From positions 53,636 to 117,635 of the forward strand of contig JAUCBJ010008130.1 in the NCBI GenBank assembly GCA_032718475.1: a stretch of 64,000 nucleotides of DNA. Direction: 5' to 3'. Both the position numbers and the translations under genes were made by a program. The notes beneath the pieces were generated by a model. That model ran no database searches. It was given only the letters and a program-made list of their open reading frames with translations, and was not told where the DNA came from. Every line of letters starts with the position of its first letter. Position 1 is the first letter of the stretch. This document shows, in pieces, positions 24,054-61,040 of the stretch. Source of the DNA: Nemertoderma westbladi. Lineage: Eukaryota; Animalia; Xenacoelomorpha.

Positions 24054-25767
24054 TGACTGACTGACTGACTGACTGACTGACTGACTGACTGACTGGCTGG
24101 CTGACTGGCTAGCTGGCTGGCTGGCTGACTGACTGACTGACTGACTGACTGACTGACTGACTGACTGACTGACTGACTGACTGACTGACTGACTGACTGA
24201 CTGACTGACTGACTGACTGACTGACTGACTGACTGACTGACTGACTGACTGACTGACTGACTGACTGACTGACTGACTGACTGACTGACTGACTGACTGA
24301 CTGACTGACTGACTGACTGACTGACTGACTGACTGACTGACTGACTGACTGACTGACTGACTGACTGACTGACTGACTGACTGACTGACTGACTGACTGA
24401 CTGACTGACTGACTGACTGACTGACTGACTGACTGACTGACTGACTGACTGACTGACTGACTGACTGACTGACTGACTGACTGACTGACTGACTGACTGA
24501 CTGACTGACTGACTGACTGACTGACTGACTGACTGACTGACTGACTGACTGACTGACTGACTGACTGACTGACTGACTGACTGACTGACTGACTGACTGA
24601 CTGACTGACTGACTGACTGACTGACTGACTGACTGACTGACTGACTGACTGACTGACTGACTGACTGACTGACTGACTGACTGACTGACTGACTGACTGA
24701 CTGACTGACTGACTGACTGACTGACTGACTGACTGACTGACTGACTGACTGACTGACTGACTGACTGACTGACTGACTGACTGACTGACTGACTGACTGA
24801 CTGACTGACTGACTGACTGACTGACTGACTGACTGACTGACTGACTGACTGACTGACTGACTGACTGACTGACTGACTGACTGACTGACTGACTGACTGA
24901 CTGACTGACTGACTGACTGACTGACTGACTGACTGACTGACTGACTGACTGACTGACTGACTGACTGACTGACTGACTGACTGACTGACTGACTGACTGA
25001 CTGACTGACTGACTGACTGACTGACTGACTGACTGACTGACTGACTGACTGACTGACTGACTGACTGACTGACTGACTGACTGACTGACTGACTGACTGA
25101 CTGACTGACTGACTGACTGACTGACTGACTGACTGACTGACTGACTGACTGACTGACTGACTGACTGACTGACTGACTGACTGACTGACTGACTGACTGA
25201 CTGACTGACTGACTGACTGACTGACTGACTGACTGACTGACTGACTGACTGACTGACTGACTGACTGACTGACTGACTGACTGACTGACTGACTGACTGA
25301 CTGACTGACTGACTGACTGACTGACTGACTGACTGACTGACTGACTGACTGACTGACTGACTGACTGACTGACTGACTGACTGACTGACTGACTGACTGA
25401 CTGACTGACTGACTGACTGACTGACTGACTGACTGACTGACTGACTGACTGACTGACTGACTGACTGACTGACTGACTGACTGACTGACTGACTGACTGA
25501 CTGACTGACTGACTGACTGACTGACTGACTGACTGACTGACTGACTGACTGACTGACTGACTGACTGACTGACTGACTGACTGACTGACTGACTGACTGA
25601 CTGACTGACTGACTGACTGACTGACTGACTGACTGACTGACTGACTGACTGACTGACTGACTGACTGACTGACTGACTGACTGACTGACTGACTGACTGA
25701 CTGACTGACTGACTGACTGACTGACTGACTGACTGACTGACTGACTGACTGACTGACTGACTGACTG
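24054..25767. repeat. (GACT)n microsatellite, ~1.7 kb, nearly perfect
   Basis: Read directly; a few GGCT variants near 24095-24125. Confidence 0.98.
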
Positions 25768-27888
25768 ACCAATAAAGACACAAACTGCTCTATTTTCTAG
25801 ACGGGGCAATCAGGAGCGTATAATTACTAATGTAGGGTTCAGGTACAGAAACCCACTACTTACCGTTGGATGGCTCTAATCTGCCGTCCGCTAATATATT
25901 TTACTAAATTTCTACGACTCCTTCTAAATTCTCGTTCCTTTCTCTACCAATTGCTCGATAGAGAGCTAACTGTTCGAATATATGAGCCACGCGGGAATAA
26001 CCAAAACAATAAACCCGAATCGGCTCCCTAAGCTGACTTAAAACGAGTGTGAGAGATTTGACACTCAGAGTGTATTCTATAGCCTAATATTACTGTAAAA
26101 TTGCGCTTACAACTACGTCCTTTCTAATCGCATCTAATCGCAATACTGGGGTTCCCTAACGGAATGTGTGAATGTGAGAATATTTAAATAATCAAAAAAT
26201 TGATGCAGCGTTTATTTTGGGACTCAGCCTTATCTGCGGCTGGCTTTAGGCCAGCAATTTACTGATGCGCGCTGCGTACTGTATACTACGATGTGAATTT
26301 TGTCCGCTAATTCAAATAACTGCCCAGCGTGAATAGTGTACGGTACTCTAAATTTATTACCTAACTACCCTCCACTATGCAGCGTACAAATTCTTAATTT
26401 TACTAATTAATTTCAGTCACAAATATGTAACGGCGTACTAATTACTAAGTATTCCAGAATGCGTAATTCTAAATTATTACGCAACGGGTCACACTAGCAA
26501 CAGCCTAAAATACCGTATTATTTTCGACCTAATCAGAAATTAATTACAGTAAGCTAAGAAATAGAAATCAATCAAAGGGAAAGAGCACCTATCCAAGCAT
26601 TCGTGATTTATTAGGCACACTTTAGTAACGCACCAATCAGCATTCAAACAACAATCGCAATCTACAGTTTAGCTAGCAATTCACAACTCGCAACTCGCAA
26701 CTCGCAACGTAAAGGATGCAGATCTCTCCCGGCTACGTCTAGGCTTCCTAACTAACCCAATTCCCGTCCCCCTAATACTACAAAATAGAGACAAAACCTG
26801 GATCATCAGCCCCTAATTGCCGAGCCGGCGTACCTGACCCACTCTACGCTGCAACTTGCGCGCAATAGTAATCCCCCCAATGTTGCTTGTCTTTGAATCC
26901 TCCGCACTCCCGTCGTCGCTAACCCCCCGATGCGCCCGCCACGCTTACCGGTACCCTAGCCCTCCATCAGAATGAGTAGCTACCGTAGCGGCACATGCAA
27001 ATCACAAAGGTCTGACAGTCTGAGAAATCCCGTAGGATTATTGTCGAAAGAAATCACATAGAACCATTTACTAAAGGGTAGAAATCATAGTTCCAACTTG
27101 TAATTAACAGCGATCATTGAGATTGATTGAGAAACACAATAAGAATCAAACAGAAATTGCAAATTTACGAATCATTGCAAGAAATCAAAAAAGGGCAGTA
27201 ATTTACACAGAAAAACTAAGCATCGAATAATAGTTGAAGGTGAGCTGTGTGGGGTGTGGTGGATGACTAAGGATGTGTAAGCTGTGCAGACAATGGAAGT
27301 ACGCCAATTTATAGGTGATTTGAGAAGGGTGATGCAATCGATCTCTCATTGGCTCCCCAATCCGAGCTAACATTAGACCAGCCTGGAAGCAGTTAGGCCA
27401 ATAAGAGAGCCGGATTGTGGGCCTATAGCTCCCTGAAATCGTAAATTGCCACCATATAAGGTAATTTTCCCGATGCTTAATTTGGCGGTACTAATAATAT
27501 CATCCACAAATATAAATTTAGCGCAATTATAGAGAAATTAAAACCAATAGCTAGCCTCATCAAGGCTAATAACGGCAAGCCCAGATCCAGGGTCCAACAA
27601 GGACTTGCTACCCTGGAACTATCTACTTATATCCTATTACAAAACTACATAGGTAGGGCTACATACTATACAAAATGGATGAGTTCAAAATATATGGGCG
27701 TTTCAACTTCCTTATCTAAATATCATTGCGCATTATGCCTTATCTAAATAATTATACTGCATCACGGACTAATATATGATACTATATAATGAACTAATAT
27801 ATTATACTGTATAATGGACTAACATTATTATACTGTATAACGGACTAATATATTACGTAATGTAGGTACAGCGCCATATACCATAACA
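25768..27888 (-). repeat. 3' LTR of element B (2121 bp)
   Basis: Begins TGTTATGG on the minus strand after GGAGCGG; ~17 substitutions and 3 indels versus the 5' LTR. Confidence 0.92.
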
Positions 27889-28394: not shown

Positions 28395-29003
28395 TTACTG
28401 ACCCGCTCCTGGGTTCTTCGGGCTCGCTCCTCTCTTTCGCCCCCTACCCAGATACACCAATCGTCCTCCAGTTGACTCCGTTGACGTGGTCCGTGAGGCG
28501 TCACTCCCCGGAACCGGCGACGATGTTCCCTGAGCTCCGACAGATACCCGGCTCGTGCTTCGTCCTCGGCCTCGTCCCAATGGTCGTGCTCCTGTGGTCG
28601 CTTCCGCTAACTCTTCCTTCTGCAATTGCATGCGCGCCTTCTCCGACGCACCCTGCGCCTTGCGTTGCAATCTCTGTGCCTCTATAATCGAGTGATAGTG
28701 GTCGTCCTTGACTTGACGCTTGTCTTGGACCTCTCCTCCTGGTTCCTTCCGTGAGCCTTGAGCTCCAACGGTCGTCGTTGTGGGCGCTGCGGTTCGCTGT
28801 TCCTCGATCCTCTTAGCGGTCAATGACCCCACTGGTACGTGAGTCAACAGGAATTCGTTGCGGTATTGAATAGCCGCCATCCTCCAATCTCCTCGCGCGC
28901 GCACCACTTTCCTAGTTTCCGAAAACAAACCCTTTGTAATACGGTCGCAAATAGCAACAAAGTTCCAAGTGTACTTGTTGTCCATATTTAGTTGTCTGAA
29001 GTA
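28395..29003 (-). CDS. In-frame continuation of the accessory ORF after a single TAA (basic, RG-rich tail)
   Basis: TAA at 29006-29004 is followed by six sense codons, then the 196-aa ORF in the same frame. Confidence 0.55.
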   Translation of the reverse strand, partial: YFRQLNMDNKYTWNFVAICDRITKGLFSETRKVVRARGDWRMAAIQYRNEFLLTHVPVGSLTAKRIEEQRTAAPTTTTVGAQGSRKEPGGEVQDKRQVKDDHYHSIIEAQRLQRKAQGASEKARMQLQKEELAEATTGARPLGRGRGRSTSRVSVGAQGTSSPVPGSDASRTTSTESTGGRLVYLGRGRKRGASPKNPGAGQ

Positions 29004-32000
29004 TTACCGAACGACTATGACTCCAGTGTTCTGTGGAAGGTCTTGAGCGGTTAGGATGAGCTCCTGATATTGTGGTAGCGACTGTAGATATGGCTCGTAC
29101 GCAACATGTGATGGGTCTACCGCCCAAAATCCATATCCCGCCTTAAATGGTAACCAACGCATCTGCGCTTGAATGTGGTAGTCAGCCACACTCTCCCACT
29201 TATCTAGCATCTCCCGAAGTAGGTTAGCGCTATGGTTCTGGAAGGAATCGTCTCGCAGTTGGCATCTCGCGCTACGATGTCCCTTTACTCCACAATATCC
29301 ACATTGAGAAATGAAAACGGTGCACGTATGAAACGAATGGTCGGTCTCATTGCACCAACGGCAGACCTTATGCGCCGCCTCCACTACCGCGTCGCACGAT
29401 TTTTGATTGTGCCTTGTGCTGCCGCACAACTTGCACCTACGCGCTTGTGGAAACCAGGCCCTCTCGTATATGAGGTCTCCAATCGGTTTCGCACTTCCTT
29501 CTTTCCCAATGTCTAATACGATGTCGTCCTCTCCGGTCAGCGGTTGTCGATCCGGAACGAAGTAAACATCCTCGCCCTTGTCCTCTATCTCCAATATTTC
29601 CTCCCGCGTTCGTTTCGGATATGTCTTCTCCACCGGAAGATCTACTCCAAACACCTCTACTAACGTCTCCGGCCAACCCTCTCTAACAGGTCTATCAGCC
29701 TCCGAGTGGAAGGGAGTACCAAACCCGCGGGTTTGATTCCCGAACCACTTCTCCAAAGCTTCTGGCATCGGATACTCCATCGACGGTCGGTCTCCCAAAT
29801 CTCCGATATTCTGTCGATATATCCCTTCGAATATTGCTAATCCTCTCCTAACCAACGATGTATTCTCTAGCGATTGGTTGAAGAACGGGGTTAAGAAACG
29901 CTTCATCACGTCGGATTGGATTCCCCCTTTCGAGCGAACGTATTGATCTCCTCCGAACACCAATGGATGACGCTTCAAAACTCGCGCAACGATATCCGCT
30001 AATAAACAAGTTACCGTGTTCGACTCAAGCACCAAATAATATTGTAGTGACGCACGGGGTGGCGCGCATATGTTCCAATACACTAACGCTTGCCGCTTGA
30101 AGTGGGATTTGAACTCCACTCCCGGTGGCGTGTTATATTCACCATACGCCTCCTTGTATTTCTTCTGCGTCTTCAACTTGAAGTCCCAATTATACAATAA
30201 ATGTGCTATGAAGCCCATACCAGTCTTGGCAGAGTTGGGATACTCCCTATAAATTCCCATGTTTTGTGCCCATAGCAACAATAGCTTGGTGTCGACAAAC
30301 GGTCTCGGCAATCTATCTTCTAAATCAGTCATGGCGTTGAAGTCACTCTCCAAATCACTCTGGACTCCCGATCCCACCTTGACGTAATCTTGGCTAAGAA
30401 TCGCCTCTCTAACCTTCTTGGGTAGCATCCTGGCGTCGATACGCTCCGCTCCGTGCATACCTCCTCGCCTGCATACCTCCAAAATCTGTTCCCTAGGATC
30501 CTTCCCCTTCCGATATTGTGTCGTGATTATGGGCTCCAGTCTCTCTCTATCCGCTCTTACGCGCATAAACACATGAGTCACACCATCGGCCGCGCGAATT
30601 TGAATGCACTTACTAGTCAAGCATTCCTGATGAGACCCTCCTTCATCCTCGTCGGATGGGGTCCACATGCGCTCGATAGCCTTGTGGTCGTCATATCGGG
30701 TGTAAGATCCCTTTCTCCTCAGCCACGCCTGGTCTACCTCCTCGTCATCTGGGAATGTAGCCACTGCGACCCATACCTTGATGTACTTGTCTAACCATCC
30801 AAATAACTTGCTCTCTTTTCCCGGAGCTCCAATCTTGTCCAAAGTGTCGTAGTCTGTGATCTGTATCGGGACATCACGCAAGAACTTCACGCATAAAACT
30901 TCCCGTAGACAGTCGACGTTCCAATGATCCGACATCCTCACCATCGGCAAGAATCTAATCGCTTCTCGCGACTCCGGGTGATCTACCAATATTGCAGGTT
31001 CGCTACCGTCGGAATAATACACCGGTCGGGGTTGAGATACGGCCTGTGGAACAAATCCGGTCACTCTCCTCGTCTCCTCTTGATGTCTATCCGCGGTCTT
31101 ATTATATTCCGCTATCCGCGCTTCGAATAATTGTTTCGCTTTCGCCGCTCGCTCCTCCTGCCGCAACGCGTCTATGTCGTCCTGATGCTCAGGCGTGAGA
31201 GCTCTTGCTCGGTGAGGCGAAGTAAACGTAGTCCAGGGACTCGAGAGCTCCAAACCCGCAGGTTTGGTACCCGAGTCGCGTGCTGCTTCGCGCCGCGCCT
31301 CTAGGTCCTTGTAGGCTCGGTACAGCGAAATGGCCGCTGCTGTCTCTATCAAACTGGGTGTCGAACAGGGTTTAATCTCCGTATACGGATCTAAAGTCGT
31401 AACGGTCGGCGTAACGGGTCTTGGAGGTTGCTTTCCGCTGAAGTCGATACTGATCATCGGGTTGCTCATTGGGTAACCTCCCTCGTTATATCTAAGGAAC
31501 TGGTGAGCTTGGCATCGCGTTAATATCGGTTCGGGATGTTGCTCGTCCAATCGGTCGGGAATCGCCATGTCTTGTTTGTTCATGCATTCTCCACATTTGT
31601 AGAACAACTTGTATACACTGAAGACCTTCGACGTCTCTTGATTCTCGCCTCGAGTCCTCCGATACAGATGCATTCCGTCGAACTGATCTCGGACTGCAGG
31701 TAGCGGCTCTTCGTGTCGTAAATACATATTCATGTGGTACAGCCGCGCAATCTCCCCATCCGGGTCTGCGCTAATGTCGCACACGTCTAACGCGAAATCG
31801 TAGGGATACCGAGTGCGATACTCTTTCCGCAAAACTTCCATACGGTCCCCCAACGCTCTCATTCTTTCCCTCCTTAACTCTTTATCATAAGCAGGTTTAT
31901 ATTTCCCATTTAGCTCCATCACCGACCTCCCGTGGTAGTACACATTCGAATCCTTGCCTCCTGGTCGGGCAAATGGCAGCTCCGCCTCCTCTCTGGCAGT

Positions 32001-32039
32001 AAATCCTCTCCGCAGTTGCGCTCTAATTTCCTTCTCCAT
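29004..32039 (-). CDS. Accessory ORF of element B: DEDD (WRN/Mut-7/EXD-like) 3'-5' exonuclease-like domain plus three CCHC zinc knuckles
   Basis: CIQIRA..LPKKVREAILSQDYVKVGSGVQSD..FVDT..GMGFIAHLL..K..W..LQYYLVLE; CKLCGSTRHNQKSC, CRWCNETDHSFHTC, CGYCGVKGHRSARC. Confidence 0.8.
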   Translation of the reverse strand: MEKEIRAQLRRGFTAREEAELPFARPGGKDSNVYYHGRSVMELNGKYKPAYDKELRRERMRALGDRMEVLRKEYRTRYPYDFALDVCDISADPDGEIARLYHMNMYLRHEEPLPAVRDQFDGMHLYRRTRGENQETSKVFSVYKLFYKCGECMNKQDMAIPDRLDEQHPEPILTRCQAHQFLRYNEGGYPMSNPMISIDFSGKQPPRPVTPTVTTLDPYTEIKPCSTPSLIETAAAISLYRAYKDLEARREAARDSGTKPAGLELSSPWTTFTSPHRARALTPEHQDDIDALRQEERAAKAKQLFEARIAEYNKTADRHQEETRRVTGFVPQAVSQPRPVYYSDGSEPAILVDHPESREAIRFLPMVRMSDHWNVDCLREVLCVKFLRDVPIQITDYDTLDKIGAPGKESKLFGWLDKYIKVWVAVATFPDDEEVDQAWLRRKGSYTRYDDHKAIERMWTPSDEDEGGSHQECLTSKCIQIRAADGVTHVFMRVRADRERLEPIITTQYRKGKDPREQILEVCRRGGMHGAERIDARMLPKKVREAILSQDYVKVGSGVQSDLESDFNAMTDLEDRLPRPFVDTKLLLLWAQNMGIYREYPNSAKTGMGFIAHLLYNWDFKLKTQKKYKEAYGEYNTPPGVEFKSHFKRQALVYWNICAPPRASLQYYLVLESNTVTCLLADIVARVLKRHPLVFGGDQYVRSKGGIQSDVMKRFLTPFFNQSLENTSLVRRGLAIFEGIYRQNIGDLGDRPSMEYPMPEALEKWFGNQTRGFGTPFHSEADRPVREGWPETLVEVFGVDLPVEKTYPKRTREEILEIEDKGEDVYFVPDRQPLTGEDDIVLDIGKEGSAKPIGDLIYERAWFPQARRCKLCGSTRHNQKSCDAVVEAAHKVCRWCNETDHSFHTCTVFISQCGYCGVKGHRSARCQLRDDSFQNHSANLLREMLDKWESVADYHIQAQMRWLPFKAGYGFWAVDPSHVAYEPYLQSLPQYQELILTAQDLPQNTGVIVVR

Positions 32040-32795
32040 TATTAGCCACGTATATACATATATATCCCAATAAGGTTCCGTTACGTAACTAATTACACTG
32101 TGGGTAAATCAGTTAGATGTCGCCGAAGGACAGACCTCTTGAGCCCCCCCCCCCCCGCCTTACAGCAGTTCAGGTTCGACTCTCTAGATCCCGTCTCATT
32201 CCTAACTATCCTCTAACCTATTCCCATGCATAGCGCAAAACTTTGGAGGTAAACTGGCCGTGACCAACTCACTTTTTGATGCCCAAACTACTCCCATTAC
32301 TTGTACTAAACTACAGTAGTTAGAAAGGACCATAATCTCAATGCTCGACTATACCAAACCCACAGGTTTGATAATCGAACATCACACTTCACTGCAAACT
32401 ACTGAGTGGGGTCCGCTACGCCCTGGTGCTACTAACCTTTAGCACCTTAGTTGTACTGCTGGCACCAATCTGTGGAAGTTGCTAAACTCAATTTACACTC
32501 CTACGTAATATAGCCGTCACCATGGTTTCTAAATGCTATTTTCCAGGCTTCACGACTTTTCAAATTACTGTTTATCTATAGACGGATTCTAAAACACGTC
32601 TATACACAGCGTCTGGAATTGTCTTGGGTTCACTTCTAATTTTTTAAAATTTTTTAATTTTCCAAAATTTTTGAAATAAAATTTTTGTTTTGATACCCAC
32701 CAGACAAAACTCAACGCAATCACCACAAGCCCGCTCCTATGCATTTCCTTGTATTTGCATACGAGGAATGCATACGAAGTGAGTTGCGTCCAACA

Positions 32796-35700
32796 CTAAT
32801 TTTGTTTTGAGGCAGGAGATAAATTATAATCTCCTGTCTCGATGCGTGTCTCTTTTAATAACACGATATCTTGGACCGGTCGGTCCAAGGTGTGTAAACC
32901 ATTAGTTTTACACTTCTTTGGGTGCGGACACTTGCACCTAATTTTCACAGTGACTGTGCGCACTATGTTTTGCACGTCTGGGTGTATATGCAAGATAACT
33001 CCCGTCTCCCAGTATTTTCTCTTGACAATCGGTTCGGTTATCAATACGTAATCTCCCCTTTGGAGACTCCGAACCGTTTTGTACCACTTTGTTCTGGTAG
33101 ATATGGTGGGAAGATAGTATTCCCGCCAATATTCCCAGAATGTGTACGCTACGAATTGTGTCACTTTCCAGCTCTTACGACTATATAGGTCGGCACTAAT
33201 GGGTTCTGATGCCGGCACAAGAAATGCTGGACTCTGCATTAGCAAATGATTCGGCGTTAATGCAACACCGTCTGGCAACATAGCTATCGGCCTTGAGTTT
33301 AATGTATGCTCGATTTCGATGAAAGCTGAGACCAGTTCGTCATCGGTAAGTTGTTTGTTCACAGGCAATGTTTTGGCAATGGCCTGCTTTACAGAGCGAA
33401 CTAAACGCTCCCAACTTCCTCCTCTCCAAGGACTTTCTGGAGTATTGAATCTCCACTCTACTCTTTGCGGCAAAAGTGCTGCAGAAATTTCTTTATTCTG
33501 TGCCGCTTTATGAGCCGCGTTCAACTCGCTATTCCCTCCGACAAAGTTTGTACCCTTATCGGAGTAGAACGCCTTTACTAGTCCTCTCCTGGCCATAAAT
33601 CTCTTTAAGGCCAGGAGCAGAGATTTGGTCGACATGTCTGCCACACGCTCGATGTGTATGGCTCTACTAGCCATGCATGTCAGTAGCAGACCCCATCGCT
33701 TGTGGGTCAGCCGTCCACTCTTTGCCTCAATCGGACCAAAACAGTCCACCCCTGTGTTCGTAAAGGGTGGGTCATATGCCTGCACTCTCACTTCCGGGAG
33801 TTCAGCCATCTCCTGTTCCAATACTCTGGCGTTCACCCTCTTGCAAACCAGACAGGCGTCATACATAGTGCCTACTGCCCTGCTTGGCTGCAATAGAGTG
33901 AATCGCTGTCTCGCTGCCGACAAACAGTGTAACTTTCCCGCGTGATGCAACCTCTTGTGTATATCCCATAGAATCGCTCTTTGCAATTCTATTGGGTGAC
34001 TAGGGATTATCACTGGGAACCTAAACTGTGAATTTATGTCAACAGTCTGGATTCTCGATCTATGACAAATAAACCCTTATGGATTAATGGACTCCATTTT
34101 CTAAGGGGTTTATAGAGAACTGGTCGTTGAGCCGATAATAGATAGAATTCTTTTGGGAAGGCACACATTTGATAATGCTTCAAATGCTTTAATTCCGCTT
34201 GATCAATCTCATCCTCTGTCAGAGGTTGTTTCAATTTCCGAATTTTCTCACTATTAGTGCTCATTTGTTCTCCTAAATGTTCCGAATGTTTTAAACAAAG
34301 GTACGAAATGTATCGGCTTAACCACGCAGTTCTTTTACAAATTGTCAGCCAAGAGGCAGACGAATTTAGTAATTTGTCATAAATACTACATGGCTCTAAT
34401 GCCAGCAACGGTTGTCCGCTAACTATTGGAAGTTTCGAATCCAAACCCGCAGGTTTGGAAACCAAAGGCTCCATTTTGTCGGTCATTTTCTGTCCGTCAC
34501 TTACCAACTGTGACTCCGGTTTAGTCTGTAAGGGTGGTTTTATGTCATAACTTACCCTTCCTGACCTAGTAGTCACGTAAGTCTGTAGGTCTGACAGGTC
34601 TCCGGGCCGCTCCAATGACTCTTCAGGCCGCTCCAATGACTCTTCAGGCCGCTCCAATGACTTAAGTTTGGCTTTAGACTTCGACTTAGAGACTTTCTCC
34701 ACCTTGACTTCTGCATCTTCAGGCATCGGATTGGTCACTATCTTTAGTCGCTCTGGCCAATGTTCCTGTGTCCTTGTTAGAAAATCAGGTCCATGCAACC
34801 AAAACTCCTGCGACTCTTCCTGACAGAATTCCGCCGGCATTGCACCTCTCGAAGTTATGTCGGCCGGGTTCAACACTCCCGGACAATGTCTCCATTGTTC
34901 ATTCGTCGAAAAGTCGACGATCTGAGCGCGTCTGTTGGCCACAAATGTCTTTAGTGCAATATTGTCGGCCGCAATGTATACTAACACTAAGGATACGTCC
35001 GTCCAATAGAATAAGGTCAATGTCGTGTCTAATTCCTCTGTTATTTGCTTACTTACCTCGACTGAAACTACAGCCGCCTGTAACTCTGCACGAGGGACAG
35101 TTATGTATTTGACCGGCATTGTCTTTGATCTAGAAGTCACAAAAGCCATCTCAAACTTGTCCTGACTCAACTCTCGGCGAAGGTAGGCTACCATACCAAA
35201 GCCGGTGTGACTTGCGTCACTAAATAAATGGAGTTCGAGATGAGCTGGGAATACCAGCTGATTCGGAAAGTAGGAACGGGGTACATCTATATTTTTCAAT
35301 AGATGTAACTCGGCTTCCCACTCTCTCCACTGCTTTGCATGTATAGGAGATATTGGTTCGTCCCACTCTAGGTCGGACAACCAAATTTTCCTCATGCACG
35401 CTCGTGCCTGTAATATTACCGGACTGATAAAGTTCATTGGGTCAAATAGTCTACTTAACATCGATAAGCAAATTCTCTTTGTCAAAACTTTGTCTGGGCT
35501 ACTGGGCTCAAATCTAACTCTTACCTGAAATTTATCCGTGTTCGGATTCCAAGCGAGTCCCAGTACTCGCGCCAAGGGGATGGGTTCGCTAATAGGGCCT
35601 CCGAATTCGTAGTGAACTTGGTCAGAGGGAAACCCCCTGTAGCCAAGCACTCCTGCAGGCCGTGAGCCACTTCTATGGCTTGTTCCGCTGTGTCCTTGGA

Positions 35701-37702: not shown

Positions 37703-37712
37703 GTCATACATG

Positions 37713-38270: not shown

Positions 38271-38345
38271 GTCATACATGACCTGGCGCAAGACATGCCC
38301 AACAGGTATCCAACGTCCGCACTTGAACTCTTCTCTGTTCCGAAT

Positions 38346-45300: not shown

Positions 45301-45345
<45 letters not shown>

Positions 45346-48700: not shown

Positions 48701-51700
48701 TATTGTATATATATCACATTACATAGAGTAACGATATCGGTAATTAATTACTAGGCTAACAGTTGATACTTAATTACTAGACTTGCGTTAATTGTAGTTA
48801 TAGCAGTAGGCATTCAACTGTACAAACAAACATGTCTGACACAAAGCAAAACCTGTCAGACAGTCTCCTAGATACAACCATCTGTGATCCAGATAGGAGT
48901 GCAGAACGTTTGAGACCGAAGTTCAACTCACCTCCTACTGTAAGAAAGATCATCCCTCCAGTAGTAGTATCAGACCCTAGGCTAGTCAAACACCGTAGGT
49001 CTATCATAGGCACTCGGGCTCGAGTCAAGCGGGACCAAGAAGCAGCTGTTAAACAGCAGCAACACCCGAGCCGAGAACTTATTTCTCAGCGGCCCGATAG
49101 CTCCAGTAGTTCAGATACTGTAGAGTTGACAACCGAGTGCGGAGCAAAGATGGCAGATGCGGTTTATTCGGATCCCCTTCTCATTCTTCCTGCAGCCGTA
49201 CTCACTAGGGTATTGATTGCGGTGGAAGAACACCAAATCGATTGGGCGAGAAGTAAGCGATCGACCAAGGACAGTTATGCGGGATACACAAGGGAGGAAC
49301 TAAAGTCTATTGTCGAGACGCAATGGAACTTCCCCGGACCCGGACTCCCGTTTAACTTATCGGAAGCTGCCTGGGAGGACTTATACAGGATGGGAGTGAC
49401 AAAGGACACTAGTGATCCAGCTGTGTGGAAGAGGTCGGCAGCGGGATATGTACAGGGATTCTTCAGCTCTTTGGAGCGATTAGAGGAACAACTGTTTCAA
49501 CAACATCAAGGACCTCAAGAACAGGGAGAGCTGCTTTATCAAGTTCGAGTAAGAACCCTAAGAATCAGACTACTCCTATCAGCATTTGAGGAAGCTTCGA
49601 AGAGAACCTAAGACACGTCGTTGCAAGTTGCTGTAAAGACTTGGTTACAACCGGTGAGTCTCAAGGTTCAAGGAACGACCCAATGGAAAATTCAGCTAAC
49701 TGAGCGCTCGACCCACGGAGAATCAACAGACGCTGCCTTTTCTCAAGTGGAAAGCGAGGTTACATTAGAGAAACCTCAGAAGAAGGACGCTATTGACATC
49801 TATCTGTCGGACTATCAACGATTTTTAGGTGATGAAGAGTTGAGGAGACGGCTGGCTGGACTTCGCCCTAATAGTGAAGGAGACAAGTTTGTGTTGGACG
49901 CAATAGACGCAGAAATGATAGCTGCAAACCAAGCTAAATTTGATGAACGCATCCGCATCGCTAGGGTCCAAGAAGAACAAGTAAAGAAGAAACAGATAGA
50001 AGACAGACAGGAAGCGGCAGCGGTAGAAGCTGAAAGAAAAGCGGCAGCGGAAGCGGCAGCGGCAGAGGCTGAAAGGAAAGCGGCAGAGGCAGCGGCAGAA
50101 GCTGAAAAGAAAGCGGCAGCGGCAGCGGCAGAAGCGGAGAGAAAAGTAGCAGCTGCAGAAGTTGAAAGAAAGGCCGCATTGGCAGTGGCGGAAACCAAAC
50201 GGAAGGCATCTGAAGAGACAGCCCAACTAGAGTTGGAAAATCTTCAAGAGAAGCAAGATTACCTAAATAAACAAATAACAGCTAGTCAGATGCAGATGAT
50301 AAGTCGATCTACTCCCAAGAGACAGGGATTTACATCATCTGATGAAGGCGATACCACCGATCCTGAAGGCGGAGGAAATAGATCTCATTCCAACAGACGT
50401 AGAAGAATGCCTCACCATCAGAAATTGCCTAATTTGCCCCCAGCTGTGAGAAGGCAACTAGCTAAAGCAGACTTATGTAGCACAGAACCCACTGACCAAA
50501 GTATTAGAGTAGAAAGACTCCCCACTATAGTGGATGAGCCTGAAATAATTAGGCCTGTTCTCGAAGCCACTCCCTCTGTGATAGAGACCACTGTACTTCC
50601 AGAACCTAACTCTAAATTCTCTTTGCACAGTACTAAACTACCTGTATCCCGTGGGACAGTTTCTCAGTCAACTCCGGTCCTGGACGCCGAGCGAGACATT
50701 AACAATTTGTCACCCGTCGTCCCTCGTCTACCCGCTACTATGTTGGCGGCTCCCGCTTCGGCGGTCGAGTGGGTGGATGAATGATGGCGGGGGATGGATA
50801 TTCTCCTCGGGCAGATGGAGAATCAGGCACGCTCCTCCCAGCAGGTCCGAGAGTTGGAGGGGACTGTTCAACAGTTAAGGGGAACAGTAAGAGAGAGTAG
50901 GTTAGAATTGCAGGAAGTGCAGCAGAGTATCGCGTTAGAACGCGATGAGTTAGTAAATCTACAAAAGGGTATACCAACACCCCCTGTAACAATGTGTCAA
51001 CCTGTTAGGTCTGAAGTATTTCATGCACAAGGTGTGGAGCCTACACGCATCTTTACTGCTAGTGAAGTAGAAACTCCTATAGTAAACCCTATTAAGGGTA
51101 ATTATAAACCTGTTGACAATGATATTCCATATAGACCTGATAATAATCCGAGAAATTTATATACCGATAACTCGATATTATATAATACGATGGCCCAAGA
51201 AAGTTTTACGCGTCAAATGGCTAGAACCGAAGCCCGTCAAGCGGTAAAGGTGGGAGAGATCGTCAAGTTCAATGGAGATGAGATGAGATGAAATGGTTAC
51301 CTTTTAATGAATATTATAAAGATAACATACAGAACTCTGTGCTATCTAATGGAGAGAAACTTAGATTCCTCATCGAGTGCTTGGAAGGATCTCCCAAGTT
51401 AATGGTGTTAAAGTTTATTGGACATCCAGATGGATTAAGACAAGTTTGGAATACACTAAACATCAGGTATGGTAATAGGAATAACATAGCTAGGTATTTG
51501 TATGCGAAATTGGTAGCGCCCCGAAAGTTCATTAGCAGCGGGATTATAGAGTTTTCCGATGAGATTCAGGAGATCTGTAGACAATTAGATTGGCTAGGTA
51601 AGTCTCATGAATATCAGAGTTCTATGGTTATTGGAGCTGTAGCATCTACTTTACCAAAGGGTGGAGTAGGTACACGCTGGGACAAGAAAGTGTTATATAT

Positions 51701-54700
51701 GATGGAACAACAACGAAGAGACCCTACCATGGCTGATCTCATGTCATTCTTAGATGGAGAGGTAAAATTACAGCTCCTAAAGCAGTCCAGAGAGAAGACA
51801 CCGGAAAATAAGGTAAGTGAGAAACCCGTTTCTAGGAGAAAGGTAACACCAGTGTGTTATACAGACGACGGCGAAAGCCAGGCTTCTCAAGAGGAGGATA
51901 GCGGGAAAGACACTGAAAGATCTTACTATGTCAACAAAGCGCCTAAAGTAAATTTAAGTCTCGAACCAATGACAGGAGAGAACAGGTAACAAAAACTCCT
52001 CCTACGTCTCCTAAGAGAGTTCACGGAAGAAAGCCCAAGGAAAGAACGAGAGTGCACAACGTTACCCAAGGTAAAGTAAGTAACATCAAACCAAAATGTG
52101 CGCTGTGCGACGGGCCCCACCGTTTAAGTGTGTGTGATGAATTTTTAAAGAAATCACTAAAAGATAGACGTGAAGTCATGTGGGATAAGCGGTTGCGTTA
52201 TAATTGCCTCAGACAAGGACACCAACGGCGAACCTGTTACTCCGACGCAAGGTTTGCAAAGTGCGGCGCGAAACATCATATCTTGTTGCACACTGAATTC
52301 GAAAGAAACAGCCCGAGCCAGGTAAGTGAGTCCGAACTACATGTCCAATTCAGTGATGTGAACGACACTGACCAAAGTTCTGAGATGGAAGGATTCTATA
52401 CGGATGAATTCTCCGACGAAAACGAATCCTGTTACCTAATAAATACCGCAGTGTATCGAGCACTTACGTATGAGAAGGAAACCGATAGTGAGCTCCCCCT
52501 AACTACTCCTGACCGACAACCATCTTGGAAAGCACCAACTTCCAACGTAGGAATCCGAGAATTTCCCGTAGTGCAGTTGAGAGTCCACGGGTCAGAAAAG
52601 AGCTATATAGTGAGCGCCCTCCTTGACTCCGGCAGCACAGGAACATTCATCGATAAAGAACTAGCCGAAGACATCTTTGCTGGACAACCCAAGTTCCGAA
52701 CTAAGTTGAACCTTTCAGGAATTATGCAGGTTTGGAAATCTACAGTAACTACAGATTACTATGTAGGCGCGTTGTCCACCCCCCAGGATGAACTAGGAGA
52801 ACACAGCATAAGGTCAGTAAAAATGGTGGCGATAAAGAACTTCGCTACCAGCCAAGTGGAACCTTATAACTGGGATGAGGATGATTTCACCCAACAGCAT
52901 GAGATACCTAGATTCAACATAGATTACCCTGGAGTGCAAATACTCATCGGCCAAAATGCGCATGAGGAGCTTGAGACATTGGAGAAACGGCCTGCTCAAC
53001 CGCAACCACTGCAAACCTATGCGGGAAGAACTAGAGTAGGTTGGTACTTTACTGCACCTTCCCGTAGAACTCTCATGGAAAGGCTACCCAAAGAACGAGT
53101 CTACCAGGTGAGTGAATGGGAAGAGGAGACCAGTGAGGGAGACGACCCACCTGAGGGAACACCATACTCCTCAGATAATGACGATATCCACCAACTATTC
53201 GACGAGGAGAATACCATCGACCTCCTTACGGAAAATGAAACTTGGCAAAACCAAGTGAACCTATGTCACCTCATTCATCCAGCGTGACAAGTCGATTACA
53301 ACGACGAACTGAATGAAGTGATAGATCGCTACAACGCGAAGACTCGTGATGAACACGCCGTACGATTCTTTACTCAAGAGGCTATAGAGCCCAATTCCTA
53401 CGATAAGGCCCTATCAGTAGCAGAAGAAAGAGCCAAGCAGATACAGGAAACAACTACACGTTTTCTTAAAGATCAAGTTAGATATGAGATTGGTCTGCCT
53501 TTCCGACGGCGAGAACCCAATTTTATAAACAACCGACCCTTGGCGGAGAAGAGAATTGCGCAACTTCATCGACGCCTTACGGCAAATGCTTCAGCTAAGG
53601 AGATGTACAAGACCCAGTTGAAGAAATTCATTGACAAGGGATATGCGGAGCGAGTACCGGAAGAAACACCCATAACTGAGAGAAAGTACTATCTAACACA
53701 TCATTACGTTCCCAAACCCGGTAAACCCAACGAAGTCCGGGTAGTATTTGACGGCTCCGCCCTCTACATGGGCCAATCCCTTAATTCCGAGTTGTTGCCA
53801 GGACCCAACTTACTCCAATCCTTGTTGGGAATACTCTTAAGATTACGACAATATTCAATCGCTTTCGCCTCCGATATAGAAGGCATGTTCTTACAAGTTA
53901 AGGCGCTGGATAGAGATCGAGACAGCCTACGATTTCTGTGGTGGCCTGAAGGCGACCTCAACCAGAAACCGGTGGAGTACTGGATGACCATCCAGGCTTT
54001 TGGGATCATCTCGAGCCCTTCAAACGCCTGCTCAGTAGTGCGTACCACTGCTGATGACAACCGGGACGCCTTCTCCAAAGAGGTTATCAACAACATCAAA
54101 CGGGATATATACATGGACGACAATTTAAAGTCCCTCCCATCGGTGGAAGAAGCCATTGATGTCGCCAAAGAACGGTAGAGTGCTTGAAAAGAGGTGGATT
54201 TCGATTAACTAAATTCACCAGTAACTCCCGTGAATTTCTGGAATCGATCCCAGTAGAAGACCGAGGAGTTAAAGATCTAGACCTTATCAAGGACGATCTT
54301 CCAGAAACCAAGACGCTTGGTTTGAAATGGGACACAGAGAGAGATATCCTGTTTTTCCAGCTAAAACAGCGAGATAATCCAGTTCGGACTAAACGGATTT
54401 GTCTAAGTATCCTGAGCACTTATTTCGATCCATTGGGATTTATTAGCCCAGTTATATTGATTGCTCGGAGTTTAGTACAACAAATGTGGCTTGAAAACCA
54501 CTCATGGGATGATCCACTTAAGGGAGAACTATTAAAGAAATGGATGAAATGGGAAGATTCTCTACCATCCATCGAGAACTTTATAATTTCCCGTTCATAT
54601 TTTGGTCATGTTCTCCCCACGTATTCCTATCAACTCCATGTGTTTGGAGATGCCAGCGATATGGGAATAGGTATAGTAGCCTACCTGAGAGTTGAAACTC

Positions 54701-57700
54701 CGGATGGAATTAAGGTCGCCTTGGTTACCTCTAAGGCCTTGATTAACAACAAGTTGAAAGTTCCTCGAGCGGAGTTAAAAGCGGCTCTATACGCTACAGC
54801 CATCGGCCGGAATGTAACAGAACAGATCGACTATCCACTGGAGAAAACTGTCTATTGGACCGATGCTTTACTCATGTTGGAGTATATAACCAATGAAGTC
54901 TGTCAGTTCAGCGTCTTCGTTACCAACAGAGTAGCCATTATACTTAGTCGCACGAAGATAGATCAATGGAGACATTGCCCCGGAACGATTAATCCAGCCG
55001 ACATCGCCTCCAGAGGAGCAACTCCACAAGAACTGATAGATACTCCAGACTGGTTAGGTGGACCCGACTTCCTAAGCAAAGAAGAGGATGAATGGCCTCC
55101 TCATCATACCACGGCGGAGATTAGACAAGCCAAGGGAGCGGAGAAAGTCAAACCTAAAACCCGAGCGAGTAAATCGAAGTTATTTAAACCCGTGATAGAT
55201 CTGTCTGTACTACACACTTCCGGAGACGACGCTTTGGATCCAAAAACCCCAGCCACAAATAAGTCTGTTGTGGAAATCAGAGAGAGAGATTGGAAATCTG
55301 GAACACCAGACGTCTCGCAGGGACTCTCACCCCTCCTGCAGAGAGCGATACATCACTATAGTTCCTGGAATCGGCTCTGTAAGGCCGTTACATATTTAAA
55401 GCGATGTTTTCATCATCACTACTCCAGGACGAAGACCGCTAGTGGTACCACTCCACTGACATCTGCTCAGGTCCATGTTGTTAAAGATCTTCCCAAATAC
55501 AAGATATCGGACAGATTTCTGAAGGAGAGAATCAGTTACCAGGAGCATGAAGAAACCAATAAGCAGATACTGAGACTCCTGCAATGCTATGAGGATTCCG
55601 ATAAGTATTTCCTGTTGTTGAGAAATCCACAGATGCGCTTAAGGGATCGTTTCTCTAGCACAATGATAGATGGGTTGATATGCGTTGGAGGAAGACTAAC
55701 TAATGCTCCATTATCCTTTGACACTAAGTTTCCCATACTCATTAGAAATCTTGAAATACAAATCAAGATGATTGTAGATGTTCACAGTAAGCTTTATCAT
55801 GCAGGTAGAGAACGAGTTCTTAGCGAAATTCGAACTCGCTATTATTTTCATAAACCCCGTAGAGCTCTGAACCAAGTTCTTAGGAACTGCATACCCTGTA
55901 GGAAAGCATTCAGTAGGCCTTTAACACAGCGAGAGGCAGAATTACCTAGGGAACGAGTAAGCTTCTATGAACCACCCTTCACAAATACCGGTGTGGATTT
56001 ATTTGGCCCTATTGAAGTATATCGTGCTAGGACTATAGTCAAGAGATGGTGTGTCATCTTTGTCTGTATGACTTGTAGAGCTATCCATCTCGATATGGTG
56101 AACGATTTATCTACCAATATCTTCATATTGAGCTTACGCCGACAGATCGCTCGCTTTGGAACTAGTAACACGATGAGATCTGATAAGGGAACGAACTTCA
56201 TTGGTGCCAATAATGAAATCAAGGCTTACGTCAAAGATTGGAACCAAAGACAGGTGGACGATCAGCTAAGGGTAACAGCGTCTAGCTGGACCTTCAACGC
56301 CGCCGACGCCCCTTGGTGGGGAGGAAGTTAGGAGAGATTAATCAGGAGCGTGAAGACCACATTTCACTTTATAGTGCCGTGCCGCGCTTATCTCACCGAC
56401 GAACTTTTGCGGACGTTAATGGAGGAAATCGCCGCCTATCTCAACGAGAGACCGCTTATGCCAGTCTCATCGAGTCCCGATTCCCTGGAAGCGCTAACAC
56501 CCGCGCACTTCCTACTGAAGAAACCTGTAGCCATGCTCCCACGATCGGAAATCACGGACGGAGACGAATACTGCCGGCAAACTTGGCAACTTATGCAGTT
56601 GTTATCCCGTCGTTTCGCTGACCATTTCGAAAAACATTATCTGCCTACACTACTCACTTCGAACTAAGTGGTTTGCGCAGCAAGAAAACGTCAGCGCAGG
56701 AGACATGGTCATTATTGTGGAGTCAGATCTTCCACGTAAGCGGTGGCAGACAGGTCGTATCATCGAGACTCATATCTCAGATGATGATTTGGTGCGATCG
56801 GTAGAACTCGTCGTCATGCGACGTAACTTTAAGAAACCGGGAATTGTCTTCGAGACGCAGCAGCTCAATCGCCCAGTTGGTCGTTTATGTTTACTGTAAA
56901 GGGACAGAGAACTCTCCGGAAACTATGGAAGGCAAGATACTCTTCCCACGACCACCTCCCTAATCCAACCAACATCCAGGGACTCCCCAACGTGACAGCA
57001 TCTGGAGTGGGTGTGTGACTATATTATTTCATATATTTTTATTATTTTTATATTTATGTATGTATTATTATGTACTCTTATTATAATCGTTTTCTTTAAT
57101 TTTATTTAGTAGAATGTTGTTTTAGCGATTATCTAGTAGATTAGTGCAATATATATTAGTCTTATTACTTAATTACTTATATTATATATATTTAGTGCGA
57201 CGGCGAGAAAAATTCTTTTTCTCTTTCCTTACTACTGTCCGTATTACATTATAAATACGTGACTACAGTAAGATGAATTATCCGTACTTATTAAAGTACA
57301 ATAAAGCTCCTACTATATTTAAGTATTATTGGTAAGTAGAGTATTAGGAATGCAAAGTTCAGATCCTCGTGTCTCAGCTAAACCAAACTCTGGGTAGACC
57401 TTGGAAACGACTTGCCTCTTCTCACTGACATTGCTCCTTGCAATATTGCTCTCATACTGTATATTAAATAATACATATAGTAGCGTGATGTCCCTTTAAC
57501 AGTAGCGTACGACGCAAATAAATCTGTTAAACCCTTTGACCATCTGTAATTCTAGTCGATTAAGATATCGTGGCACCCACCGATATACTTGAAAGACAAA
57601 ATTCTAGAATCAGTGGTTAACGTCCCCAGACAAGCTCTGGAATAAATTGGTGCCCACCTTAAATATTAACTATTAATATTTGTAAAATCTGTCAAATAGA

Positions 57701-57970: not shown

Positions 57971-57974
57971 TTAA

Positions 57975-58532
57975 CCCTATTAGTACCGGGCTATAAAATG
58001 TTCTACAAATACCGGGGGGGGGGGGGGGGGGGGGTCATATTGACCCCTCCTCCCCTCTAAAATCTACAAATTTTTACGAAAACGTCTGATTTTTTGTTTG
58101 CACGTAGGTATCACTAGTCTGGATCCGACCGAAAAAAAAAATTTTCGAAAAATATACTGGGGTGGTTATATTGCAGCACCAAAATTACAAGTAGTGCACA
58201 ATTTTCACAAAATTTGAAAGTTACTTTTTTCGGCTAATTGTTTTTCAATACAGGTTTTCTGGGGCGCAAAATAGATTGGAAAATATGTAAAAATGAATTA
58301 GTTACTATAAATGGCAGTTTAGTCCTCTCTGCGTAGGAAAAAATGAAAAAAACAAGTAACCAGCACTTTTCAGTTTGAACACAAAATTTTTAATTCACTT
58401 ATACGATGCTATAAATTCACATTTTTAGGTTTTCTTGGGCGCTGATTCTAATGAAATACATTTCTAATATGCCAGATCATTGCAACTTGTATTTTTCGGC
58501 GTAATTTGGCAAATTTTGGTGCTAAAATTGCT
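57975..58532. mobile_element. piggyBac-like non-autonomous element end
   Basis: TTAA|CCCT terminus and GGGGTCATATTGACCCC subterminal palindrome; other end not seen. Confidence 0.45.
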
Positions 58533-59539
58533 GGTCGGTCGGTCGGTCGGTCGGTCAGTCGGTCGGTCGGTCGGTCGGTCGGTCGGTCGGTCGGTCGGTC
58601 GGTCGGTCGGTCGGTCGGTCGGTCGGTCGGTCGGTCGGTCGGTCGGTCGGTCGGTCGGTCGGTCGGTCGGTCGGTCGGTCGGTCGGTCGGTCGGTCGGTC
58701 GGTCGGTCGGTCGGTCGGTCGGTCGGTCGGTCGGTCGGTCGGTCGGTCGGTCGGTCGGTCGGTCGGTCGGTCGGTCGGTCGGTCGGTCGGTCGGTCGGTC
58801 GGTCGGTCGGTCGGTCGGTCGGTCGGTCGGTCGGTCGGTCGGTCGGTCGGTCGGTCGGTCGGTCGGTCGGTCGGTCGGTCGGTCGGTCGGTCGGTCGGTC
58901 GGTCGGTCGGTCGGTCGGTCGTCGGTCGGTCGGTCGGTCGGTCGGTCGGTCGGTCGGTCGGTCGGTCGGTCGGTCGGTCGGTCGGTCGGTCGGTCGGTCG
59001 GTCGGTCGGTCGGTCGGTCGGTCGGTCGGTCGGTCGGTCGGTCGGTCGGTCGGTCGGTCGGTCGGTCGGTCGGTCGGTCGGTCGGTCGGTCGGTCGGTCG
59101 GTCGGTCGGTCGGTCGGTCGGTCGGTCGGTCGGTCGGTCGGTCGGTCGGTCGGTCGGTCGGTCGGTCGGTCGGTCGGTCGGTCGGTCGGTCGGTCGGTCG
59201 GTCGGTCGGTCGGTCGGTCGGTCGGTCGGTCGGTCGGTCGGTCGGTCGGTCGGTCGGTCGGTCGGTCGGTCGGTCGGTCGGTCGGTCGGTCGGTCGGTCG
59301 GTCGGTCGGTCGGTCGGTCGGTCGGTCGGTCGGTCGGTCGGTCGGTCGGTCGGTCGGTCGGTCGGTCGGTCGGTCGGTCGGTCGGTCGGTCGGTCGGTCG
59401 GTCGGTCGGTCGGTCGGTCGGTCGGTCGGTCGGTCGGTCGGTCGGTCGGTCGGTCGGTCGGTCGGTCGGTCGGTCGGTCGGTCGGTCGGTCGGTCGGTCG
59501 GTCGGTCGGTCGGTCGGTCGGTCGGTCGGTCGGTCAGTC
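58533..59539. repeat. (GGTC)n microsatellite, ~1 kb
   Basis: Read directly; AGTC variants only at ~58557 and at the last unit. Confidence 0.98.
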
Positions 59540-61040
59540 TGTAAAAGCTTTTGTGGGATAACTGACACGTTTGCCTTTGCTGGCCAGTTCCCCCCCGGTC
59601 GCTAGAATACTCTCAAAGGGATTTATAACTAAAATAGTGCAAGCTACCAGCTTATTGGCTGATGTGCTGTGTGGAGATATCTGGGCTCAGTTTAATCGGC
59701 CAACTAGCTGTAGGGAGGTTGCCTAAGCCTTGCTGTCCGTGTCGGCCAATAGAATTTGCGTAGGCGTTGATTTCGACCTATCCCAGCGCTACTGAACTGA
59801 ATTTCCTATCTCTATGCTCATCCTCTGTGTTGAACGGAGCTTCGGGGAATAAGGGTATTTTGGTATACTCGTATAGTGGTAGTAGTCATATGATTTTATA
59901 TGATTCTGTTGTTGTGTTCCCATTTTTCGCCATAACACCGGCTTTTTGGGAAGAACTCTAGTAAAACTGCTTAAATTATCGAAAGTATAAACTGTTACCT
60001 ACTCGACTAACTAATCTAATCAATCTTAACTCACTATTAATCATATTGTTTGTACTGTTATTTACCGTCAGTTATTAATTGTACCTATTTGTTGATGGAA
60101 ATATTGCTCTTTGGATAATACGGATAAATCTCCCAAATTTCCCAATTTTCTTGATACACTACAGGTTAGAGAGACAGGCTATACATAACAATTGCGATTT
60201 ATATTAATGTGGTGTGTATTGAATCTAATGTTATTTAGCAGACCCTACATGAGTCAATTGCTGCTCTCTTTATGTGTGATCAAATATACTGACGGTCGGC
60301 AGAATAGTGTGCATGATTGTGATTGGTAACAAAGCATTTCCTAAAGAATGCGCTTTATACTTTAATCATAAGCAGTATCGTTGCGTTTAGTATAAGTCCT
60401 AGTTCTGTTTAAATAGATAGAGCGCCACGTCCTAAAGGAACTGTTAATATTTCCCGAAAGCCAATAATATCTGTCAGAGAATTAATTATTAACGATCTAT
60501 CGAATAATACAGTAAGTTTACACTGCAACCTTACACTGCAATAATAAAATTTAAGCAGCCGAATTCAGCCTCCCGGGTGTAGATCCATCGGGTGAATGAT
60601 CGCGCATGGGCTGACTTCGGGTAATGTTTTGTGTATTAGCATAAAATATTGTCGTATGCTAAAGTTGTTTTAATTAACTAAAAGACATATAAATTTTGGC
60701 AGGTTAAACTGCTAAAGGTCTTCAAAAGCGCGAACAGTAACAGTTTATAATCTTATTGCAGTAGGCAATAAGGTTGCAAAATACCGTAGTGACTGGTAAA
60801 ACTGAACCGGTACTTCTGTAGGTCAGTAGGCCTAACTGTCATCACCGGTACCGGTACTGCTGTACAAGTACATTTAGTATTATTCGATTTTGATTATTGT
60901 ATACCGGTAGGCTGTTTAAGAGATTAGGGACTGTACACCCCTTGTTTCTTTTGGAGCTTACTTATTTCTGTCGGTTTTATTTCCTAGTAAGTTAATATTG
61001 AGCTGAAGACGTGTAAGTCTGCTCAGATTGTTCAAATAAT

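Follow-up and report, generated by a model that had tools for sequence, protein, structure and literature searches.

AGTC-type tetranucleotide arrays at the 5' ends of three BEL/Pao retrotransposons in Nemertoderma westbladi: a likely but non-strict microsatellite preference

Introduction

Can an LTR retrotransposon lineage acquire a taste for microsatellites? The question is raised by a 64-kb stretch of Nemertoderma westbladi DNA (64,000 nucleotides, hereafter the window) in which three elements, referred to here as B, C, and D, each begin at the edge of a long tetranucleotide array. The targeting of LTR retrotransposons is usually ascribed to host-protein tethering or to weak palindromic motifs. 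By one published account, near-strict sequence specificity is found almost exclusively among non-LTR elements, with LTR targeting (as in Tf1) working via host proteins at a distance. Microsatellite targeting is on record among non-LTR elements and some DNA transposons and in one viral DDE enzyme. We found no report of a microsatellite-targeting BEL element in the literature within reach; Repbase entries and subscription journals fell outside it, and a precedent may exist. The main text of a BEL/Pao survey (PMC3118150) contains neither the word "microsatellite" nor the phrase "target site". If a tetranucleotide preference is inherited in a BEL lineage, it would show a weak palindromic preference sharpening into a niche, with the C-terminal loop of the integrase as a candidate protein feature; if such a preference is absent genome-wide, the locus is simply a place where BEL elements have nested in the ordinary way.

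Results

The features on which the analysis rests are as follows, with element A serving for comparison.

630..8477, plus strand: A, a BEL/Pao element with a single 2615-codon frame
24054-25769: (GACT)n array of 1.7 kb, 421 of 428 units GACT, a few GGCT variants at the far end; adjoins the B 3' LTR
25768..27888, minus strand: B 3' LTR, about 2.12 kb, starting TGTTAT at 27888; 3' end ambiguous, may miss about 24 bp
28395..32108, minus strand: accessory region of B, comprising a 1034-codon frame without stops (29004-32108), then one stop, then a 202-codon frame
32796..41696, minus strand: B gag-pol, split into five reading-frame pieces
42827..42850, minus strand: candidate LTR tip of B, 24 bp ending TTTAACA, beside the 5' LTR copy only
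42851..44978, minus strand: B 5' LTR, starting TGTTAC after CAGTC
44979-45727: (GACT)n array, 172 of 187 units GACT, separating B and C at their 5' ends
45728..48780, plus strand: non-coding 5' part of C, presumably its LTR and leader, starting TGTAAAGG after GACTG
48781..56900, plus strand: C gag-pol, interrupted by stops and frame changes, with DUF1759, protease LLDSG, RT YMDD, Pao RNase H, and integrase
57971..58532, plus strand: opening part of a DNA transposon, probably non-autonomous (TTAA then CCC), interrupting the C 3' region and leading into the GGTC array
58533-59539: (GGTC)n array of 251 units, 249 GGTC and 2 AGTC (at 58557 and 59536)
59540..64000, plus strand: D, 5' 4.4 kb only, starting TGTAAAAG after CAGTC; its visible gag start is open to the window edge

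A preliminary description of this DNA had reported array junctions at the 5' ends of B, C, and D, and all three are real in the sequence: CAGTC-TGTTAC for B (5' LTR start at 44978, minus strand), GACTG-TGTAAA for C (start at 45728), and CAGTC-TGTAAA for D (start at 59540). Its further remark that D sits at one of only two AGTC units in a GGTC array was borne out by our count of 2 among 251. All three 5' ends carry TG. The start of B is set by its second LTR copy, whose own start at 27888 is preceded by non-array sequence; those of C and D were inferred from a common TGTAAA.GCTTTTG.GG start together with 75-82% DNA identity between the two elements further in. Neither a second LTR nor a second copy of the start of C or D was found within the 64-kb window. 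A candidate second LTR start of C after its stop (about 57010) was rejected for want of an upstream copy. No tRNA genes were found in the window, and no primer-binding site was assigned.

Four ends of these elements can be assessed, and all four adjoin (A/G)GTC arrays; the CAGTC/GACTG phase is common to all three 5' ends, a small sample. These are very long, pure arrays with individual variant units. B and C lie in divergent orientations on either side of the 44979-45727 array, in the middle of which are variant blocks, while D is nested: it lies in an array, the array in the DNA transposon, and the transposon in C. This transposon may be piggyBac-like; its other end is absent from the 64-kb window. 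C and D, members of the same family, both start at arrays, with different repeat units.

B and C are confirmed as BEL/Pao LTR retrotransposons. Both carry DUF1759, Peptidase_A17, and an integrase zinc finger, with DUF5641 additionally in B, and in both the YMDD, DAS, and integrase motifs stand in BEL/Pao order. The gag-pol of B encodes DUF1759, an RT with YMDD, a Pao RNase H with DAS, the integrase zinc finger, the D,D,E motifs, and DUF5641, and contains a 160-bp insert at about 38118-38278 with a (TAG)n-type tail. The 1034-codon frame in the accessory region of B contains three zinc knuckles and a part that resembles a 3'-5' exonuclease. D was assigned to BEL/Pao by its identity to C, only the start of gag being inside the window. 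A triple Cys-His box in gag is described as a BEL/Pao feature in the portion of PMC554778 available to us. A pattern search retrieved a single box from each of A, B, and C. Three can be made out by eye in C, two of them degenerate, and the box region of B falls at a frame break.

The preliminary description had also recognized two distinct BEL families, with which the 34-45% identity between the pol pieces of B and C agrees. The two are nevertheless likely to represent one lineage, judging from protein trees in which they form sister branches for RNase H (support 0.965; 123 of 123 sequences), integrase (0.916; 108 of 123), and RT (0.42; 122 of 123), with A outside the pair. The relatives in these trees were gathered with B as the query and are at most 48% identical. 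Long-branch attraction could also produce this grouping, the B-C distance being 1.5-1.8. In the C-terminal domain of the integrase, a basic loop is longer in B and C than in A; it spans 8-9 residues in 70 of 78 parsed sequences and 20 in C, and the insertion in B was read by eye.

We would like to note that the 3' end of B is harder to read than its 5' end. Two long terminal direct repeats are present, differing by 17 substitutions in about 2120 nt, and their homology ends at 25768/42851. This end is compatible with three registers: an LTR ending in GT, one ending in CA, or one that has lost a TTTAACA tip. An exact CAGTC duplication needs the GT ending (TG...GT termini exist in plant Copia elements, per the accessible part of PMC9804982), and the CA ending leaves no 5-bp duplication. 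The TTTAACA that closes the extra 24 bp mirrors the TGTTA start (chance about 0.03), and if it is taken as the true LTR end, then the tip of the 3' LTR would have been deleted. GACTG had been reported on both flanks of B. The CAGTC at the 5' junction stands, but the matching flanks do not prove a duplication, since the 3' end fits all three registers and the 4-bp period of the array alone gives a 1-in-4 chance match. The 3' flanks of C and D lie beyond the window, and a duplication is established for none of the three elements. The 3' junction looks reworked.

As for the phase, the target motif of Drosophila Pao-group elements is given as the weak palindrome AWTAWNWTAWT in the available portion of PMC3276498. 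The phase used by B, C, and D scores 6 of 10 against this motif, with the other three phases at 3, 2, and 3. The site of D scores 4-5, a value reached by 5 of about 1000 positions in its array. The earlier suggestion of cutting in a fixed phase holds in that all three 5' ends show CAGTC/GACTG, but the phase need not be a special feature, being the one that the weak Pao palindrome predicts. As the best fit of four to a published motif, it needs no new mechanism. The pile-up of elements in arrays, unlike the phase, does need one. The motif is weak, with 17% of the non-array 11-mers in the window scoring at least 6, so it accounts for phase and not for enrichment.

Arrays make up 12.6% of the window outside B, C, and D. 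None of the seven other edges checked (one of them an internal edge of A) touches an array, the nearest lying 558 bp away, and the 3' LTR of A starts about 15.5 kb from the nearest array. At the 12.6% array share, three insertions out of three falling in arrays, combined with a 1-in-4 match in phase, have a chance of about 5e-4. That value carries no correction for the choice of this window among many, so it is suggestive and not decisive. The sample comprises three insertions in one selected window, with B and C sharing one array.

We further compared the B terminus with other samples, represented by contigs only (no raw or long reads) from three studies; of five runs listed, with a best share of 0.48, four were used. 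A first flank pass drew on 24 of 462 loose-end matches and left the repeat-side junction (44971-45002) uncovered; a second drew on 14 of 15. The matches listed include three distinct B-family flanks, none of which lies in an array, and they include no array flank from any of the four runs, where repeat flanks may have been filtered out. The three flanks, from two studies, begin no more than 2 bases from the B terminus, one of them exactly at it. Two have 1-2 bases in common with the internal sequence and may be 3' LTR junctions that were rearranged, and one falls within 5' sequence of the C family (2 mismatches in 30 to 46881). All four runs contain the B family in abundance, yet only 1-2 unique flanks are visible per run; a crude expectation, which unsafely treats depth as copy number, is about 176 and 450 visible flanks against 1 seen per run. 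Such scarcity would follow if filters conceal the majority of flanks as repeats. Pooled samples or weak seeding could also explain it, and depth does not equal copy number. The flank test has known blind spots, and the other-sample data give no measure of the strength of the array preference.

The B terminus had no matches in metagenome contigs, and no match was found in a phage collection. A scan for arrays followed by TGTWA returned at least 113 loci, most of them short; none of the 113 listed had BEL protein or window matches. The outcome speaks neither for nor against a preference, and it shows that CAGTC-TGTWA often arises as a plain array variant.

Discussion

A non-strict microsatellite preference in one BEL lineage is the likely reading of the window, although it is unproven genome-wide. 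We hold with moderate confidence the fuller account, in which B, C, and D are BEL/Pao elements, probably of one lineage, with 5' ends at AGTC-type arrays, and in which their integrase would favor such arrays strongly but not exclusively. The integrase would cut a target of two-fold symmetry with the 5-bp stagger that is usual for it. (AGTC)n is pseudo-symmetric, since counting out from the central base every odd position is A.T; one of its four phases would therefore fit best and be usable in either orientation, matching B and D versus C. In a GGTC array, the rare AGTC unit taken by D would be the best-fitting site. Because a long array offers hundreds of consecutive sites, related elements would pile up and nest, and later slippage of the array would likely blur or trim their ends. 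A bolder form of this account, which we regard as possible though doubtful, has the integrase of B and C/D reading the AGTC repeat directly, perhaps via the enlarged basic C-terminal loop, with most copies genome-wide in one (A/G)GTC phase. If true, this would be a microsatellite niche that an LTR retrotransposon holds through direct recognition of the sequence and that has persisted in families with about 40% identity in pol.

The more serious challenge, though we think it unlikely, is that no special preference exists: the elements would lie in a repeat-dense refuge that tolerates array insertions, or in open chromatin, with the weak Pao palindrome setting the phase and a coincidence being noticed. 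The window is indeed crowded with nested elements, the known motif accounts for the phase, all three visible outside flanks are non-array, the 5e-4 figure fails once very many windows are scanned, and microsatellites are described as general insertion targets in the part of PMC5704215 available to us. Such indifference fits poorly with the seven other edges, none at an array, with C and D of one family starting at arrays of different unit, with the placement of D at a rare AGTC unit, and with an abundant family showing so few unique flanks. At the opposite extreme, strict targeting of AGTC arrays as in some non-LTR elements, with essentially every copy at CAGTC/GACTG in an array, agrees with the three of three in the window and the few unique flanks visible. 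The preliminary description had proposed that both families target (AGTC)n arrays as safe havens, which may be read as a possible evolutionary explanation. Against strict targeting stand the three non-array flanks that begin no more than 2 bases from the B terminus; they exclude it if they are true 5' ends, though two of them may be rearrangements. We consider strict targeting very improbable.

The order of events could instead be reversed, element first and array second, with insertion into short CAGTC-containing seeds that cut repair or slippage then grew to kilobases. The length and purity of the arrays and the reworked look of the B 3' junction favor such growth, and in maize TAFTA elements short TA targets expanded after insertion (as cited in the accessible portion of PMC5907723). 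However, the mid-array variant blocks between B and C, and the GGTC composition of D's array versus the site used, fit arrays older than the insertions, and a preference for seeds would still be required; we judge this history improbable. Least credible to us is that assembly joins across arrays made the arrangement. Kilobase arrays are prone to misjoins, and the other-sample data are contigs, with no raw or long reads, but a misjoin inside an array alters its neighbors and not the abutment of each TG terminus on the array, and the arrays carry individual variant units.

The preferred reading, a strong but non-exclusive preference, has its closest parallels in MuTAnT (PMC4486113) and SaTar (PMC5907723), which, in the parts of those sources available, are likewise DDE-enzyme systems with a strong but non-exclusive microsatellite preference, array-linked chains of elements, duplications that are hard to read, and tips that are often deleted. 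They differ in being Mutator-like plant DNA transposons, mostly at TA repeats with 8-11 bp duplications, and SaTar chains are described there as non-nested, whereas D is nested in C. The sesarmid nimaviruses, with a Ginger2-like DDE transposase, are also reported to insert in microsatellites of an invertebrate genome, but according to the available portion of that preprint (bioRxiv 2023.01.31.526539) they are large DNA viruses with an (AT)n target and no reverse transcription. Near-strict sequence-specific elements share with B, C, and D a fixed position in a multicopy target, but not their looser choice of site. Drosophila roo, Max, and 3S18 belong to the same BEL/Pao superfamily, with 5-bp duplications in the fly elements, and the best-fitting phase of the Pao-group motif on (AGTC)n is the phase used here. 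The accessible part of that source (PMC3276498) describes low-information motifs and mentions no microsatellite preference, whereas every end that can be assessed here sits in a tetranucleotide array. B further departs from the Pao-group elements described there in its 2.1-kb LTRs and its extra 3' frame.

Elements and array contacts

The window is eukaryotic DNA rich in repeats, in which four BEL/Pao LTR retrotransposons were found, here called A to D, with A serving as the comparison element. These and the tetranucleotide arrays are as follows:

630–8477, element A, a single frame of 2615 codons
24054–25769, (GACT)n array
25768–44978, minus strand, element B, with two LTRs of 2.12 kb, a gag-pol split into five parts, and an additional frame of 1034 codons
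44979–45727, (GACT)n array
from 45728, element C, gag-pol broken, 3' region interrupted at 57971
58533–59539, (GGTC)n array
from 59540, element D, first 4.4 kb in the window, a relative of C (75–82% identical)

The two LTR copies of B differ by 17 substitutions. No 3' LTR of C was found within the window, and the insert at 57971 in its 3' region is probably a DNA transposon running into the GGTC array. The closest database relatives of a B pol piece are about 40% identical, with a ribbon worm and a barnacle as the named organisms among the best ten.

With the start of B set by its second LTR copy, and those of C and D by the start sequence common to both, the 5' junctions reported in the preliminary description were reproduced: CAGTC|TGTTAC for B, GACTG|TGTAAA for C and CAGTC|TGTAAA for D, whose 251-unit array has two AGTC units, with the junction at one of them. 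All four assessable ends of B, C and D contact an array, versus none of the seven other edges checked in the window. The chance that all three insertions lie in arrays and share one phase is about 5e-4, as calculated from the window's own array share and uncorrected for window selection, and we consider the association a real local pattern.

The GACTG said to flank B on both sides can be read there, but it is no proof of a duplication. The homology between the LTR copies stops at GT; when the LTR is read with a CA end, the duplication disappears. The 5' LTR extends 24 bp further, as far as TTTAACA, which is a mirror of its TGTTA start (a match with a probability of about 0.03 by chance), and the sequence suggests that the tip of the 3' LTR was trimmed. 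Trimmed ends are common in the microsatellite-resident MuTAnT DNA transposons covered in part of PMC4486113, and TG...GT ends exist among plant Copia elements according to a section of PMC9804982; more than one 3' register of B is therefore tenable.

Relationships and coding capacity

Trees were built from single unjoined frames of the elements and 120 relatives gathered with B as the query. B and C were sisters in the RNase H tree (support 0.965, 123/123 rows), the integrase tree (0.916, 108/123 rows, short-match rows left out) and the RT tree (0.42, 122/123 rows), with A next to the pair in the domain trees. This supports B and C as a putative single lineage but falls short of proof, given the long branches and the use of B to gather the relatives. 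The C-terminal domain of the integrase has an enlarged, basic loop in B (32796–32950, minus strand) and C (56780–56900, plus strand), while 70 of the 78 parsed integrase sequences, A among them, have a short form. The B loop contains a Cys-x-Cys-x-His...Cys stretch, and our guess is that the enlarged loop contacts target DNA.

The extra frame of B, open for 1034 codons after pol (29004–32108, minus strand), has eight homologues (E <= 0.001) in a set of 1.84 billion representatives. Common to it and these homologues are a region resembling 3'-5' exonucleases and, at the C terminus, three zinc knuckles. The profile built from all nine sequences matches human EXD2 (6k17, E 4e-4) as well as Lin28 and nucleocapsid knuckles, and the Atlas lead for the frame is PF01612 + PF00098 (0.82). 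The first D-x-E motif is present in most homologues but has no aligned counterpart in B, making exonuclease activity of the B product doubtful. A literature search listed no paper on this combination.

Flanks in other samples

Of five sequencing runs listed, all in the form of contigs, four (three studies) were aligned to the B start and its internal neighbour. B-family sequence occurs in these contigs at high abundance and in diverse forms, its depth there not being a copy number. Loose ends at the B start lie at 27888 (runs X1 and X3, from one sample), 27889 (X1) and 27890 (X2). Among the matches listed in these contigs there are three distinct B-family flanks, none of them an array. One, from sample S1, is C-family 5' sequence matching window positions 46881–46910, and B-family copies likely also nest within C-family elements. 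Unique flanks this scarce in an abundant family would be expected if filters for repeats and human likeness had masked array flanks; pooling of samples or weak seeding would account for the scarcity equally well.

A metagenome scan for the B terminus gave no matches, and none of the 113 loci listed from a second scan (at least 113 loci) carried BEL sequence. Five of these loci (L004, L005, L016, L087 and L112), unrelated to the window, run from a similar short sequence through an (AGTG)n tract into differing sequence, resembling repeats that carry a microsatellite at one end.

Explanations for the association

The reading we favour, at roughly an even chance, is that the integrase of the B/C/D lineage would prefer the pseudo-symmetric AGTC repeat strongly but not exclusively and would cut it in the best-fitting phase; nests of elements would then accumulate in long arrays, and later array slippage would blur their ends. 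The targeting of AGTC arrays proposed in the preliminary description agrees with the array contacts of all four assessable ends, but a strict form of it is not supported: the three non-array flanks in other samples are evidence against strict specificity, which we consider quite unlikely, and specificity of the strict kind treated in part of PMC3706591 was not found in this lineage.

Appreciably less probable than a preference, yet the most credible alternative, is that the pile-up is tolerated, with the ordinary Pao motif at work. That the arrays grew after insertion is improbable, and assembly joins are the least probable account of all.

Drosophila Pao-group elements, as described in part of PMC3276498, make 5-bp duplications and have in common the weak palindromic motif AWTAWNWTAWT. 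Against this Drosophila motif, (AGTC)n in the CAGTC phase fits at 6 of 10 positions and in the other phases at 3, 2 and 3, so the fixed phase, in both orientations, follows from ordinary symmetric target recognition. The phase noted earlier is present, as CAGTC or GACTG, at all three 5' ends, but its being a special feature is not supported. The D junction scores 4–5, a level attained at 5 of about 1000 positions of its array. The motif does not account for the array enrichment, because 17% of the non-array 11-mers of the window score >=6.

A preference for microsatellites is known from Mutator-like elements (parts of PMC4486113 and PMC5907723) and a nimavirus DDE case (part of bioRxiv 2023.01.31.526539), whose behaviour is alike, whereas B, C and D are BEL/Pao retrotransposons. 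A literature search of open journals, at the level of titles and abstract openings, found no microsatellite-targeting BEL precedent. The lineage is probably a new form of a known behaviour, its genome-wide reach being unproven.

Other features of the window

A foldback element (9638–10845) with arms of about 466 bp, 99% complementary, lies just downstream of A. Three related short pieces (14448–14604, 23399–23450 and 38118–38278), each with a terminal (TAG)n-type tail, probably derive from the 3' end of a non-LTR element; the last splits the gag-pol of B. Within RT-like non-LTR sequence, a 278-bp exact tandem duplication (15671–16226) is either recent or an assembly artefact. A small RING-finger-like frame (23639–24031, plus strand; Pfam zf-RING_2 E 0.03, below the cut-off) ends 23 bp from the left array and is adjoined by a short AT-rich frame (23042–23470); the two may belong to some larger mobile element in which that array lies.
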